Shown: positions 15,458 through 20,629, counted from the stretch's first letter. The stretch: 64,000 nt of DNA from an uncultured Gammaproteobacteria bacterium (GCA_963783695.1 CAWAOM010000001.1:481938-545937), one strand, 5' to 3'. The notes: generated from the sequence alone by a model not told the origin. Translations and numbers: made by a program.

Positions 15458-15946
15458 CTAAGAGACCCGGAGGCGGGCCGTGCCGGGCGGCTCGTCTACC
15501 AGATCAAGGCTGTCAAGAACGGCGAGCGGGATTCGCTGTCCGGCAAGAAAATCGTCCACGCCGCGCACGACCATCGGGCTGCGGAGCTGCGACTCGCGGT
15601 TGACTAACTGATCGCGCGTCAGCCACATGGCACGCTCGATCCCGTCATCGAGGACGAGGCCGGCGTCATGATCGGAGACGCTGCCCGCGAACGAAAACCG
15701 CAGGAAAGTCGAACCGTTTCGCGGTTGCCGCCAGAGGTAGATGCCGACCAGCGCTTGCGGCTCAAAATGCCAGGCGGTTTCTTCCCGCGTTTCGCGAATA
15801 ACGGCGTCGACCAGGCTCTCGCCGGGTTCGAGATGCCCGGCAGGCTGATTGATTACCAGATCGCCGGCGACTCGTTCCTCCACGAACAGAAACTGACCAT
15901 GGCGTTGCGCAACGGCGGCGACGGTGACGTGAGGTTTCCAGACCAT
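15458..15946 (-). CDS. NUDIX hydrolase (NudJ-like by position)
   Basis: Nudix box GHLEPGESLVDAVIRETREETAW. Lies immediately upstream of mnmA, as nudJ does in E. coli. Confidence 0.85.
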   Translation of the reverse strand: MVWKPHVTVAAVAQRHGQFLFVEERVAGDLVINQPAGHLEPGESLVDAVIRETREETAWHFEPQALVGIYLWRQPRNGSTFLRFSFAGSVSDHDAGLVLDDGIERAMWLTRDQLVNRESQLRSPMVVRGVDDFLAGQRIPLAVLDSLDLVDEPPGTARLRVS

Positions 15947-16095
15947 GGCGGCAGTATAGCCGGGTCTTTAATGGCAATGGTGCGGCGCCCTGAGACGCGC
16001 ATCACAGTTTGCGAAAGAGGTGGCGGATACATTATGTCATCCAAGTAAATCCAAGGCCGCGTCCGCGTTTTTCGCTGCCAGGTCCGGAACAGTCA

Positions 16096-17397
16096 ATGCG
16101 TCGCTTTAGCGCTACAATTCTGCTTGCTTTTTTCGCGCTGGGTGCAAGTGCGGACCCGCGGACATTTGCTGACGCCCGGAGCATGATCGACGATGGCGAT
16201 GCGGCCCAGGCGGTGGATTTGTTGTCTCCTCTGTCGGCGACCTATGGTGGCGATCCCGAGTTCGACTATCTGCTCGGCCTCGCGCTGCTGGAAAGCGGTC
16301 AGCCGGATGCTGCGATTGCGCCGTTGCAACGCGTGATTAATGCCGATCCGATGTTTGCTGGCGCGCGCATGGACCTCGCCCGGTCCTGCTATTTCTCCGG
16401 CCGCTACGATCAGGCACGCGAACATTTTGATATTTTGCTTGGACAGTCTCCGCCTGAGGTCGCGCGGCGTGCGATCGCCGAGTACCAGGCAGCGATGGAT
16501 GACAGGGAATCCACAGCCAAATGGACCCGCGAGGGGATGTTGCGGCCGGTGATCGGCTATGACAGCAACGCCAATGCCGCGACCGCCGCCAATGATTTTC
16601 TCGACTTCACGCTGGACCAGCAGAGCCAGGAGACCGGCAGTGCATTTGCCGAGCTGAACGGGGGTTTCGCGGCGAGTCGATACGTTCGCCGGGGAATGCG
16701 TGCCGGGATCAGATCCGACTTCCAGGCGCGGCATTATCCCGATGCTTCCTTCGTTGATTTTATTGGTGGCAACGTACGGGTTGGGGTGGGCTGGCTCAGC
16801 GAAGGACATAGTCGCGGCATCGGCTTGCGTGCCTATCGCTTGCACGTGGACAACGATTTCAACAATCACGGGCTGTCGCTCGAAGGTACCTGGGATCAGG
16901 CCGTTGGCGAACGCTCCCGGCTGGGCTTTTTCGTTCGCGCCGGCCTGCTGCGCTACGAAGATGATCTTGATACCAAGGACGTCGACCAGGTCCTGGCCGG
17001 GGTCTCCGCCAGTCGCCGGTTCGGCGCGAGCCGGGACAAGCTGATTACCCTGTCTGCGCTGATTGGCAGCGACGACGCAACTCGCTCTGATTCCCGCTAC
17101 GGCCGGACACTTTATGGGGCGCGCGTCAGCGGGAGGTGGCGCATACACCAGCGGATTCTGGCGCGGGCGAGTCTCGGCTTCCAGCGCTCCGATTATGACA
17201 AGCCATTTTTCGAGCTCGAATACGATGACGACCGCTCCGACGACATGCTCGATGCGGAAGCGGGCCTCGCGTGGACCATCGGCGAAGACTGGCAGCTCGA
17301 CTCCGGTCTGCGCTATTCGGACAACGATTCCAACGTCGATCTATACCGCTATGACCGATGGTTGTCTTTTGTCGGCCTGAGCAGGCGCTGGCGATAG
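16096..17397 (+). CDS. TPR-containing outer-membrane beta-barrel protein, DUF560/Slam (type XI secretion)-like
   Basis: Signal peptide MRRFSATILLAFFALGASA. N-terminal TPR-like helices. The C-terminal ~300 aa show an alternating beta-strand pattern ending RYSDNDSNVDLYRYDRWLSFVGLSRRWR. Adjacent to a gene with a TbpB-type barrel. Confidence 0.55.
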   Translation: MRRFSATILLAFFALGASADPRTFADARSMIDDGDAAQAVDLLSPLSATYGGDPEFDYLLGLALLESGQPDAAIAPLQRVINADPMFAGARMDLARSCYFSGRYDQAREHFDILLGQSPPEVARRAIAEYQAAMDDRESTAKWTREGMLRPVIGYDSNANAATAANDFLDFTLDQQSQETGSAFAELNGGFAASRYVRRGMRAGIRSDFQARHYPDASFVDFIGGNVRVGVGWLSEGHSRGIGLRAYRLHVDNDFNNHGLSLEGTWDQAVGERSRLGFFVRAGLLRYEDDLDTKDVDQVLAGVSASRRFGASRDKLITLSALIGSDDATRSDSRYGRTLYGARVSGRWRIHQRILARASLGFQRSDYDKPFFELEYDDDRSDDMLDAEAGLAWTIGEDWQLDSGLRYSDNDSNVDLYRYDRWLSFVGLSRRWR

Positions 17398-17481
17398 CGT
17401 CGCGGCATACCAGGGAGTGTGACGCACGTCACGAATCACCTTGTCGTTTCTGCCTTATTCTTGTTCTCGGCGAAAAAAGAC

Positions 17482-19065
17482 ATGGTCTCCCAGGGGGACA
17501 AAGTGATTCACTCCGTTGCTAATCTGGCGCGACTGCTGTTGCTTGCCACGATGCTTGCAGCACCCGTATCGGCGAACGCCGATGCAGGCGTTGTCAGTTT
17601 CGTCGCAGGGAATGCCTATCGCATCGAAAGTGACGGCAGCCGCAGTCTGGTCAGCAAGGGTATGCCGATTGCGCCGGGTGATCGAATTGCAACCGGGGTC
17701 AACGGGCGTGTCGAGTTACTGATGAGCGACGGTGGCCTGATCGCGTTGCGTCCGGACAGCGAGTTTATCGTCGAGTCGTTCAGTTATTCCGCGCCGCAGG
17801 CTGCAACGCCGCGAAGCTCAGCCGCGCCTGCTGGCGACAAGAGTTTCTTTTCGCTGATCAAAGGTGGATTGCGCTCGGTAACCGGTGCGGTCGGGGAATC
17901 CAACAAAGAGGCCTACCGGATGAATACGCCGGTGGCAACGATAGGCATTCGCGGCACCGATTACATCGCGCTTTACTGCTCCGCCATTTGTGGCAGCAAT
18001 AATCAGCTTGCGAGTGGCCTTCATGTCATCGTCTTGAGCGGTGCGATAGAGATGGCCAATGACGCTGGCAAGCATCTCTTGGGCCCGGGTGAAACCGGGT
18101 TTGTCGAAGACAGCGGGTCGGCGCCGGAGGCGGGTGTCCGTCCATCCGTTTTGTTAACCGAATTCAGCGAGCTGTTGCCACCCGCTGAATATCGCGACCT
18201 GGTATCGGAGCCGGAGATCGGCAGCCTGCCCGTGCCGGTAACTGCCGTGCCCGAAGAGAATGCGGAGGACGCGGAAAGCGGGCGCACCATGGTTGCATTT
18301 GTAGCGACCCGGGAGGAGGACGATCGCGTGCCGATGGTTGTGGCGGGTCCCGGTGCAGGGTCGGCGAACGCGGCAGGCGGCGAAGCAGCAGACACGCTGA
18401 CACAGGTTTTGCGCGGCGCCACGACTATCGCACCGAAGGATGCGCCTGCGGCTGCCGAGGACGGCGGCGATAACCTGCATGATGCGGTTGAGCTCGGCGA
18501 TGCCGTCATTGGTCCCAACGGTACAGTGATTGATTTGACGAGCGGCAGCGCCGAGCTTCCCGACATGCTGATTGCCGATGGCGGGAGCGACGCAGACGGC
18601 GGTAGCGGCCCCGCTCAAGGTTCCGGTGATGATTCCGGTGAAGGTTCCGGTGAAGGTTCCGGTGAAGGTTCCGGTGAAGGTTCCGGTGAAGGTTCCGGTG
18701 AAGGTTCCGGTGAAGGTTCCGGTGAAGGTTCCGGTGAAGGTTCCGGTGAAGGTTCCGGTGAAGGTTCCGGTGAAGGTTCCGGTGAAGGTTCCGGTGAAGG
18801 TTCCGGTGAAGGTTCCGGTGAAGGTTCCGGTGATGGTTCCGGTGATGGTTCCGGTGATGGTTCCGGTGATGGTTCCGGTGATGGTTCCGGTGATGGTTCC
18901 GGTGATGGTTCCGGTGATGGTTCCGGTGATGGTTCCGGTGATGGTTCCGGTGATGGTTCCGGTGATGGTTCCGGTGATGGTTCCGGTGATGGGTCCGGTG
19001 ATGGTTCCGGTGATGGGTCCGGTGATGGGTCCGGTGATGGGTCCGGTGATGACGGGTTCCGGTGA
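17482..19065 (+). CDS. FecR-domain secreted protein; N-terminal segment of a frameshifted Slam-cargo-like gene
   Basis: Type-I signal peptide ([16 protein letters not shown], no lipobox Cys). FecR-type motifs [30 protein letters not shown] and [13 protein letters not shown]. Then (GEGS)16(GDGS)18, ending GDDGFR-stop. Alternative start is GTG at 17503, preceded by AGGGGGA. Confidence 0.7.
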
Positions 19066-19222
19066 TGGGTCAGACGACGGGTCAGACGACGGGTCAGACG
19101 ACGGGTCAGACGACGGGTCAGACGACGGGTCAGACGACGGGTCAGACGACGGGTCAGACGACGGGTCAGACGACGGGTCAGACGACGGGTCAGACGACGG
19201 GTCAGACGACGGGTCAGACGAC
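18637..19222 (+). repeat. Three consecutive blocks of 12-bp tandem repeats inside a coding region
   Basis: 16 x ggtgaaggttcc (18637-18828, identical). 18 x ggtgatggttcc/ggtgatgggtcc (18829-19044). One aberrant 16-nt unit ggtgatgacgggttcc. 13 x gggtcagacgac (19067-19222, identical). Confidence 0.98.
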
Positions 19223-20092
19223 GGTTTCGGTGGCGACGATGGCGGTGACATCGGTCCCGGAGACGATGGCCCCGACGACGATGACGCGGGTAACGGCAAC
19301 GATAATCTGACGGTGATTGCGCTTGCTTATTCGGGTGGCGGCTACTTCGAGCGCGAAAACCGCAATGGCAACGACGCGGCAATGATCGGCAATATCCCGC
19401 TTTCCCTCGTCTTCGACGATGCCAGGGTAGTGGCGGACGGCGACGGCGGGCTTACGCAGATCCGCATTCGCGAATCCCGATACGACGGCGCCGGGTCGGT
19501 TTACCTTGTCCGTCAGAATGCGCGCAACGTCGACACCGGCCGCGATGACGCGACCGGGATTCGCTGGGGGCGTTGGGCGGATGGCAATATCGGCGTCAGA
19601 TCGCATGGTGGCAGAGGCAGCCACTTGCAGTTGGGTGACGGCGGGTTGCACTGGATACTGGCAGACGGACCGCGACCGCAATTACCGTCGTCGGGAACCC
19701 GTGAATTTGCGCTGGTCGGGGGCACCGCGCCGACCGACAATCACGGTAATGCCGGGGTTCTGGGTGGTGCATCGCTGACCGCCGACTTCACGTCGCAAAC
19801 GGTCGACGCCGCTATTGAGCTCAACATACCCGCAACGGGAACCGAGTGGGCGGCCGAGGCGGCCGGGCTGGATATTAACGTTCCGGCAGCCACTTTTTCT
19901 GGTGAGTTCGATACCGTTACGATCACCGGCAGCGACGGCCTGAATCACGATGGAGTCGGCAATCTCGATGGGTTTTTCAGTGGCGGCGAGGATGGCGGGC
20001 TGGGTGGCGCAGCGTTCGGTTTCTCGCTGAGCGATGGCGATGACACGAGCGTATCGGGTACCGCTGCATTCGAGGTTCAGCCCGATCCCTGA
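19055..20092 (+). CDS. C-terminal segment (+1 frame) of the same gene: acidic GSDD repeats plus a TbpB-like handle/beta-barrel domain
   Basis: Reads (GSDD)13 and a D/G-rich tail. It then continues WGRWADG...LHWI...[46 protein letters not shown]...FSGEF...[24 protein letters not shown]...GTAAFEV, which matches the motif order of TbpB/haemophilin-type barrels. There is no start codon or signal peptide of its own at a sensible place. Confidence 0.6.
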
Positions 20093-20122
20093 TTCACCGC
20101 GGGGCAGCGCTGTTTCCGCGGG

Positions 20123-20629
20123 TCAAAGATGCAGCCGCCGGAATTCCGGTTCTGCATAACTCGCGTGCCAGATATGATCGAATTCCTCGAGATATTTGCG
20201 CGCAACGGCGCGGTTTGAACTGTCGCATATGCCGTGCATCCGGCGGGCGTCGGCACGATAGACTACGCCTTTGTCATCGGCAACCAGGTACGCTTCGCCG
20301 TGTTGGTCGCGATAGTCCTTGTGGACATTGCGAAACTCGACATAGCTGCTGAGCCTTCGACCGAGTCCCACCAGTCGGTTGCCATCACGGATGGCGCGAT
20401 AAGGATCCGCCAGCAGCACCCGAACCCGGGCGAAACTTCGAGCCAGTATCAGCCGCTTGATGATCTCGATGAACTGGTCGTCGTCGTAGGCGAACGGTTC
20501 GAGGTCCTGGGTGAAAATGGCAACGGACCGTTGCGCGCTGGCGGTGATTTCCAGAATGGCGTCGCGGATCTCGGCAGTACTGGTCAGGACTTTTCTGGTC
20601 TCGGACCGAGTTTCTTCCTGGTTGCTCAT
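20123..20629 (-). CDS. Conserved hypothetical protein (168 aa)
   Basis: Intact ORF whose ATG overlaps the GNAT stop (ATGA). No motif I can name. Confidence 0.6.
   Translation of the reverse strand: MSNQEETRSETRKVLTSTAEIRDAILEITASAQRSVAIFTQDLEPFAYDDDQFIEIIKRLILARSFARVRVLLADPYRAIRDGNRLVGLGRRLSSYVEFRNVHKDYRDQHGEAYLVADDKGVVYRADARRMHGICDSSNRAVARKYLEEFDHIWHASYAEPEFRRLHL

Follow-up and report, generated by a model that had tools for sequence, protein, structure and literature searches.

A putative type-11-secretion-like pair of a Slam-like outer-membrane barrel protein and a FecR-headed partner with a TbpB-like C-terminal module in environmental Proteobacteria

The stretch of DNA analysed here, referred to throughout as the window, comprises 64,000 nucleotides from an uncultured gammaproteobacterium (GCA_963783695.1 CAWAOM010000001.1:481938-545937) and carries a pair of adjacent genes on its plus strand, on which all features of the pair described below are located. 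The upstream gene (16096-17397) is an open reading frame (ORF) of 433 amino acids for a Slam/type-11-like outer-membrane protein, hereafter called the barrel protein. The downstream gene (17482-20092) encodes a FecR/TbpB-like protein, hereafter called the partner, and is present in the assembly as two overlapping ORFs, which become one frame of 869 amino acids after removal of one base. An earlier note on this DNA had described the two genes as a Slam-like outer-membrane protein followed by an unusual FecR-domain cargo with a TbpB-type C-terminal barrel; all the elements that it listed were found at the coordinates it gave, and its treatment of 17482-20092 as one gene with one extra nucleotide agrees with the restored 869-residue ORF. 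The majority of the checks that it suggested turned out to support its interpretation. We consider it reasonably likely that the pair is a self-contained type-11-secretion-like module, consisting of a divergent DUF560-type barrel and a dedicated, non-lipidated partner.

The barrel protein starts with a predicted signal peptide (residues 1-19, ending in ...ALGASA before DP; 16096-16152), which was assigned by inspection of the translation and has low confidence in the structural model; its N-terminus, MRRFSATILLAFFALGASA followed by DP, resembles a type-I signal peptide. A periplasmic tetratricopeptide repeat (TPR) domain of seven helices follows (residues 21-139, from H21-32 to H121-139; 16156-16512), supported by the AlphaFold2 model and by significant Pfam matches to TPR_19 (53.7 bits) and TPR_16. 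The remainder is modelled as a 14-strand β-barrel (residues 144-432, from E144-156 to E419-432; 16525-17391), and the protein terminates in ...SNVDLYRYDRWLSFVGLSRRWR. The model, built on an alignment of homologues, reached a predicted local distance difference test (pLDDT) score of 93 and shows seven TPR-type helices and then exactly 14 strands, in accordance with the signal peptide, helices and terminal β-strand region that the earlier note had read from the sequence; the 16-18 strands of polysaccharide-exporting barrels, which would have spoken against its proposal, are not seen. In Foldseek comparisons with the Protein Data Bank (PDB), the best target-normalised template modelling (TM) scores, 0.57-0.69, were obtained with the 14-strand barrels OmpG and CymA.

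Assignment of the barrel protein to the DUF560 superfamily, which the note had also proposed, draws on its relatives. A database search retrieved about 72 full-length homologues. Among 64 family members, 29 match the SlipAM/DUF560 profile (PF04575) at E<1e-3 (best 8.7e-10) and 31 match TPR_Slam (PF24575) at the same threshold, and every other barrel family is matched by at most four of the 64. The window protein aligns to SlipAM over profile positions 12-286 of 288 at a sub-threshold 16.3 bits (cutoff 22, E 0.0076) and scores 18.8 bits against TPR_Slam (cutoff 35.2); as a check of the proposal, these profile matches are weak. Taken with the model, these matches indicate that the barrel protein has the Slam architecture and would be a divergent branch of the DUF560 superfamily. 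A polysaccharide porin of the BcsC/PgaA or EpsL/BBP2 type was considered and rejected on account of the strand count, the weak scores (EpsL 28.8 bits against a cutoff of 275) and the constant presence of an adjoining protein partner; a BcsC/PgaA-type porin would have 16 strands rather than 14, a TPR array longer than the roughly 120 residues seen here, and synthase genes nearby, of which there are none.

The partner carries a predicted type-I signal peptide (residues 1-33, ...APVSANA before DAG; 17482-17580), recognised by inspection. No lipobox cysteine is present, as the earlier note had stated; the only cysteines of the protein are residues 166 and 170, forming a C-x3-C pair, so that residues 1-165 are free of cysteine. 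Of 144 family members, 103 have a C-x(2-4)-C pair. The barrel gene ends 85 nucleotides before the ATG at 17482, and the GTG at 17503, which is conserved and preceded by GGGGGA, is the more likely start; in the relative L004, an equivalent of the ATG is absent and the gene is called from the GTG. Initiation at 17503 would shorten the n-region of the signal peptide by seven residues.

The N-terminal part of the partner is a FecR-like domain, which was delimited by the family profile to residues 14-258 (17521-18255; hidden Markov model (HMM) E 4e-77) and contains the Pfam FecR core (PF04773) at residues 67-189 (17680-18048), with a significant score of 36.5 bits against a cutoff of 24; the FecR domain named in the note is thereby upheld. 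Residues 35-100 also match the NCBIfam profile of the LapA retention module (NF033682; 37.8 bits, E 2e-9), below its cutoff of 50, and the same profile is matched by 20 of 47 relatives. In LapA, this module forms a folded plug on the periplasmic side, by which a surface protein is kept in its outer-membrane channel. We regard this similarity, which was detected at the sequence level, as a resemblance only. Weaker NCBIfam matches of the FecR-like region were to the Leptospira FecR-domain proteins Lsa33 and LipL45, and a sequence search of the PDB with the N-terminal region of the partner returned nothing relevant.

The C-terminal 262 residues (19304-20089) constitute a module that is TbpB-like according to AlphaFold2 and Foldseek, with a strand handle or pedestal bearing a WGRW...LHW motif and a predicted barrel of eight final strands (about 19697-20077). 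The block of motifs that the earlier note had singled out is present here and conserved in homologues as ...TGIRWGRW...LHWI...LP.SGT..F.LVGGT.PTDNHGN.G.L..A.LTADFT.QTVD...W.A...F.G.FD...G.G.L.GFF.G...G..GAG..YSL.D...T.V.G.AAF. The model, computed from 28 sequences (pLDDT 87.5, predicted TM score 0.86), is all β and comprises about twelve strands and then the eight final strands, beginning at residue 132 of the module. In a Foldseek search of the PDB with the model of the entire module, TbpB structures came first (9clm_B, the C-lobe 5kkx, and 3ve1; E about 3e-4, probability 1.0); the C-lobe 5kkx aligned with E 3.7e-4, probability 1.0 and TM-scores of 0.41/0.45, and LbpB (7n88) was also matched with a probability of 0.95. 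By sequence, the 262 residues have no match in Pfam (E<=1), NCBIfam or PHROGs, and the NCBIfam profile slam_lipo (NF041636, "Slam-dependent surface lipoprotein") does not match the window partner. This profile is matched by the multi-module relative P0109 (E 7.4e-8, under the 80-bit cutoff) at residues 619-736, inside the module copy at 615-792, and at E<1e-3 by three of 47 single-module relatives. The module therefore appears to be TbpB-like by fold and remote similarity, and is no member of the Pfam family TbpB_B_D.

The pair belongs to a large family and is no one-off oddity. When a profile of the module was searched against 1.84 billion representative proteins, it was found in 966 representative clusters at E<1e-3 and in 260 at E<1e-30. 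The dominant forms are a protein of about 500 residues with one module and a longer protein with two to eight tandem modules, up to 3351 residues in length. An N-terminal FecR domain was detected by Pfam in 40 of 47 single-module representatives, the seven without it probably being the seven short entries of 194-345 residues, and in six of the nine top-scoring multi-module proteins scanned. Partners encoded at 79 genome loci have one to seven copies of the module; across the family, the N-terminal FecR-like region (FecR-N) is constant and the number of modules ranges from zero to seven. The most expanded partners, with three to seven tandem modules, were observed in Gallionella, Sideroxydans and Burkholderiales (L032, L060, L063, L074, L082 and L084), and the linkers in the partners of these betaproteobacterial iron oxidisers are non-acidic and 500-1400 residues long.

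The linkage of the two genes was assessed in 80 module loci, one genome per species, 66 of which had enough upstream DNA to be informative. A homologue of the barrel gene lies directly upstream of the partner gene on the same strand in 61 of these. The barrel gene also adjoins a frame-split partner in L009 and L018, and a CHASE2 gene stands between the two genes in L053, giving 64 of 66 linked loci; no barrel gene was found within 8 kb in L055 and L058. The reciprocal sample consisted of 80 metagenome loci drawn from 537 confirmed relatives of the barrel protein, and 55 of them had at least 900 nucleotides of downstream sequence. A FecR-N family gene follows directly in 51 of the 55, and in three more when overlapping stop-to-stop ORFs are allowed, for a total of about 54 of 55. 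The hosts are Gammaproteobacteria (Woeseiaceae, Steroidobacteraceae, Halieaceae, Pseudomonadales/Cellvibrionales and "Chromatiales") and Betaproteobacteria (Gallionella, Sideroxydans and Burkholderiales) of sediment, soil and groundwater. Adjacency of the two genes is near-obligate across Gamma- and Betaproteobacteria. The co-occurrence check suggested in the note has thus come out in its favour, and the linkage is about as strong as evidence of this kind gets.

At several loci, the barrel gene is followed by a FecR-N protein with no detectable module (L090 8356-9324, 322 residues; L109 8140-9963; L116 and L117, with L116 4074-5354; L137 4443-6131), which suggests that FecR-N itself is the part tied to the barrel protein. 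Joined forms were also encountered: the 1239-residue protein P0112 combines a Slam-like barrel (residues 39-413) with three TbpB-like modules and has no FecR-N, and in L046 (5649-8516) the barrel and the partner share one stop-to-stop ORF. Such joined forms may be genuine fusions, or assembly indels may have produced read-through.

Between the FecR-like domain and the module, the window partner has an acidic low-complexity linker of about 350 residues (18256-19303), delimited with Tandem Repeats Finder and linker statistics. The acidic spacer reported in the earlier note is real and is built of 49 near-perfect 12-nucleotide repeats, of which 36 (18619-19051, 98% matches) encode GSGE and then GSGD and 13 (19067-19224, 100% matches) encode GSDD. 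Counted between the two profile matches, the intervening region amounts to 428 residues (259-686, to about 19537), 25% of which are aspartate or glutamate, compared with a median of 79 residues and a mean acidic content of 10% for linkers of the family. This giant acidic tether is peculiar to the window lineage.

The frame of the partner gene is broken between the two repeat blocks. Frame A runs from 17482 to a TGA at 19063-19065 and frame B onward to 20092, and the surplus base (GAT GAC G GGT TCC) is placed at 19053-19057; any one deletion at 19054-19058 restores the 869-residue ORF. Taken at face value, the assembled stop would make the partner gene a pseudogene with only a truncated FecR-plus-linker product, and the closest relatives, L005 (99% identical) and L004 (88% identical), are frame-broken in the repeat as well. 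Their breaks are at positions unlike that of the window, however, and the L005 repeat shows further noise typical of long-read consensus errors, such as a 13-nucleotide unit, GGTTCCGGGAGGAATCCAGTG. Short-read contigs (L006 and L008) end inside the repeat, and the names and lengths of the contigs suggest that long-read assemblies are involved. In addition, the 258 aligned codons downstream of the break contain no stop and have a ratio of nonsynonymous to synonymous substitution rates (dN/dS) of 0.17 against L004 and 0.14 against L008, the corresponding values being 0.25 for the N-terminal part of the partner and 0.08 for the barrel gene; the more distant homologues P0084 and P0085 are intact single ORFs of about 500 residues. 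Because the relatives break elsewhere and the downstream dN/dS is low, the frame break at about 19055 is probably an assembly error, and inactivation of the gene seems very improbable. The differing positions, the stop-free and constrained downstream codons and the intact distant homologues therefore led us to treat the partner gene as functional. Programmed frameshifting was rejected, as there is no slippery sequence like those of known +1 sites and the relatives break at other places. As side observations, the number of repeat units is not the same in the window (18619-19224) and in L005 (7520-8200), the gene of which is 69 nucleotides longer overall, and the window, L005 and L004 (7560-7930) each have a one-base frame break of their own; together these point to repeat-length polymorphism and long-read consensus errors in the acidic repeat.

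Housekeeping genes surround the pair in the window and in close relatives of it, namely acnA, mnmA and a NUDIX gene upstream and genes for a DUF7931 protein, an acetyltransferase, a JmjC protein and purB downstream. A Pfam scan of the window's ten largest plausible ORFs (454-1315 residues) revealed no TonB-dependent receptor, and to that extent the absence of such a receptor reported in the note is borne out. The 64 kb contain no homologue of the CHASE2 cyclase, cNMP-binding protein, FHA-cytochrome or large lipoprotein found next to the pair in relatives, and a promoter and terminator scan of 15800-20400 revealed nothing exceeding background.

Many relatives have a more extended gene context. 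In one arrangement, a gene combining CHASE2 and Guanylate_cyc domains lies directly upstream of the barrel gene, and the partner gene is followed by genes for a Pyr_redox/cNMP_binding/4Fe-4S protein and then an FHA/multihaem cytochrome. L029 (1538-12352) displays this order with a protein of about 300 residues and no assigned function between the last two, and L088, L090, L097, L125 and others are similar; such operons were seen mainly in Woeseiaceae-like genomes and marine-sediment metagenomes. Of the 80 metagenome loci, more than half have a CHASE2 homologue, as do 13 of the 80 genome loci. The other arrangement, which 33 of the 80 genome loci share, has a gene for a large protein of 800-2600 residues directly downstream of the pair (e.g., L010 8658-11066, L025 8569-11583, L041 5374-8244 and L001 9604-17508). 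This protein consists of a conserved N-terminal region of about 300 residues with a lipobox-type signal peptide (e.g., ...LAMAGC or ...LLSGC) and arrays of HYR, He_PIG, cadherin-like, Big_9 or FG-GAP domains. No TbpB-like module was detected in it by HMM; the Slam-like barrel could have in it a second client, in this case a lipidated one.

An association of FecR-domain proteins with CHASE2 sensors has been described in several bacteria. In Burkholderia, LysM-FecR proteins are paired with CHASE2 histidine kinases, with no CHASE2 ligand being named (PMC5192318), and in Campylobacterota a cluster of a CHASE2 cyclase, a FecR-domain protein and a TPR protein was seen as a probable single signalling pathway (PMC9239204). 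The CHASE2 cyclases of Sinorhizobium meliloti need the outer-membrane TPR/barrel protein NsrA, which was modelled with a β-barrel portion, and one of the targets of that pathway is the FecR-domain protein SMc02177 (PMC5498481, PMC7529298). The signalling association was thus already partly in view; that the TPR protein is Slam-like and that the FecR protein ends in a TbpB-like tail are previously unreported.

By analogy with type 11 secretion, in which the C-terminal barrel of the cargo is the targeting domain (PMC12282271, PMC8406197), both proteins would enter the periplasm by the Sec pathway, and the barrel protein would recognise the C-terminal handle-plus-barrel module of the partner and move it to the cell surface. 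With less certainty, the FecR-like domain may be a periplasmic end that serves for retention or signalling, so that the partner would span the outer membrane with its linker threading the barrel and its TbpB-like module or modules outside. In the window, the 428-residue acidic stretch would then be an unusually long tether holding the module far from the surface, and it may also bind cations. In relatives, an event at the surface could be coupled to cyclic-nucleotide synthesis through the periplasmic CHASE2 domain.

The pair could accordingly be read in several ways. In the most far-reaching of them, which is less likely than not, the partner would be a trans-outer-membrane tether of which only the module or modules are exported, the disulfide-capable FecR domain serving as a periplasmic plug that in relatives talks to CHASE2; in the window, the cyclase would have been lost or never present, and a giant polyanionic tether would have been acquired. 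We lean to a periplasmic FecR domain because it is the invariant part of the partner, has a conserved cysteine pair, resembles the LapA plug and belongs to a domain family that acts beside CHASE2 sensors in the periplasm. The earlier note had taken the FecR domain to be the passenger on a long acidic tether. In this classical reading, the protein would be exported as a whole and released or displayed, the FecR fold would be an extracellular binding domain, and the C-terminal barrel would serve only for targeting. Such an arrangement would conform to every characterised type 11 cargo, all of which are fully exported, including soluble cargo with type-I signal peptides (haemophilin and HrpC), which are released (PMC8406197, PMC12282271); the partner has the same kind of signal peptide without a lipobox, and known cargo differ widely in their N-terminal domains. 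Against whole-protein export, FecR-N is invariant while the supposed targeting module varies from zero to seven copies, the FecR-like domain resembles a known periplasmic plug, and periplasm-sensing CHASE2 cyclases adjoin the pair in many relatives. Partners consisting of FecR-N without a module still adjoin the barrel gene, as in L090, and are hard to explain if type 11 targeting needs a C-terminal barrel. Full export is quite possible, though less likely than not, and the FecR domain is a putative passenger that may instead be the periplasmic end.

A further reading dispenses with translocation altogether, the pair being part of a CHASE2-type signalling complex in which the barrel protein would, like NsrA, be a receptor or a channel for entry and the partner a wholly periplasmic adaptor. 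The Campylobacterota cluster regarded as a single pathway (PMC9239204), the dependence of the S. meliloti cyclases on NsrA (PMC7529298) and the CHASE2 genes that adjoin the pair in many relatives are all in keeping with it. It leaves unexplained, however, the constant pairing of a DUF560-like 14-strand barrel with a TbpB/LbpB-like module, the combination that defines type 11 secretion, and neither the window nor about half of the relatives have a CHASE2 gene nearby; we consider it a slight possibility.

Several observations weigh against the interpretation of the pair as a type-11-like module. The barrel protein of the window is under the Pfam thresholds for SlipAM and TPR_Slam; its top Foldseek match by E-value is BcsC, a protein with TPRs and 16 strands (TM-score 0.35-0.43), and no Slam-annotated structure was among the PDB matches listed for it. 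On the side of the module, the TM-scores to TbpB are modest (0.38-0.45), the module profile gave only a chance match to PDB sequences (E 2.1), and none of 28 C-terminal family members matched TbpB_B_D (PF01298) at E<=10. The TbpB-type barrel claimed in the earlier note is consequently sustained in its structural part, by the eight modelled final strands and by TbpB and LbpB as the best PDB matches, and not in its Pfam part. Moreover, the partner gene is frame-broken as assembled, the window has no CHASE2 gene, and the type 11 systems known so far export their cargo in full, with no precedent for retention of an N-terminal domain.

To our knowledge, type 11 secretion is known almost only from host-associated bacteria, in which it serves metal and haem piracy. 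The discovery of its cargo has relied on TbpB-type HMMs, and the present family, with 966 module clusters and hosts such as Woeseiaceae, Halieaceae, Steroidobacteraceae, Gallionella and Sideroxydans, would define a large environmental branch that was overlooked, its cargo escaping these HMMs and carrying a constant FecR-like head. The frequent operons with CHASE2 cyclases and cNMP-binding redox proteins suggest a signalling role for type 11 secretion, and the pair offers a concrete candidate partner for the CHASE2 domain. If the tether topology is true, a protein plug replacing the lipid anchor would be a new way to hold a protein at the surface, type 11 secretion would form the outer-membrane half of a new surface signalling route to cyclic AMP or cyclic GMP, and the long-orphan CHASE2 sensor would gain a partner. 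The pair is of interest because its family is large, because current cargo HMMs miss it and because of the unexpected link to CHASE2 and cyclic nucleotides.

Among other known systems, the LapA system resembles the pair in about 65 N-terminal residues of the FecR-like domain, as mentioned above. LapA depends on type 1 secretion, a TolC-like channel and a LapG cleavage site, in contrast to the pair, in the neighbourhood of which no RTX repeats, ABC transporter or LapG/LapD genes were seen. The FecR/PupR anti-sigma regulators share PF04773 with the partner, and this domain of FecR is periplasmic and contacts an outer-membrane partner. Unlike these regulators, the partner has a cleavable signal peptide instead of a cytoplasmic anti-sigma domain and a membrane anchor. 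The partner does not fit a FecR-type anti-sigma regulator, since the FecR domain directly follows the signal peptide and neither an extracytoplasmic function sigma factor nor a TonB-dependent transducer adjoins the gene. The clusters of Campylobacterota (PMC9239204) and Burkholderia (PMC5192318) likewise encode a secreted FecR-domain protein and a "TPR protein" together; a Slam-like barrel or a TbpB-like tail was not recognised in those reports, and they are likened here by description rather than by homology. In contrast to these CHASE2 clusters, the window has no CHASE2 gene within its 64 kb.

The closest likeness is to the type 11/Slam systems (Slam1, NilB and HrpB, with the cargo TbpB, LbpB, fHbp, haemophilin, HrpC and Pls). 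Like them, the pair is a two-gene unit, in which the barrel protein has a signal peptide, a periplasmic TPR domain, a 14-strand barrel and similarity to the SlipAM and TPR_Slam profiles, and the partner has a Sec signal peptide and ends in a handle and eight-strand module of the TbpB/LbpB type; several handle-barrel copies are found in some partners, as in TbpB and in Sphingomonas and Psychrobacter proteins (PMC12282271). The differences are that the window barrel protein is sub-threshold in Pfam, that the module is not recognised by PF01298, and that the N-terminal FecR fold is absent from the roughly ten cargo architectures described so far. The pair also lacks nearby genes for a TonB-dependent receptor or for haem or metal uptake, its hosts are free-living Proteobacteria of sediment, soil and groundwater, and many relatives are tied to CHASE2 cyclases and not to uptake. 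No paper combining DUF560 with FecR was found in the searchable literature: neither the 2025 catalogue of about ten type 11 cargo architectures nor the 2017 Slam survey mentions FecR, cyclase or CHASE, and in a 2023 haemophilin preprint FecR comes up solely as a regulator encoded nearby, which agrees with the earlier note, whose author was aware of no described cargo of this type. We conclude that the pair is real and is not a wholly new kind of system, being instead, in all likelihood, a variant of type 11 secretion with a divergent branch of barrel proteins and a previously undescribed class of cargo.

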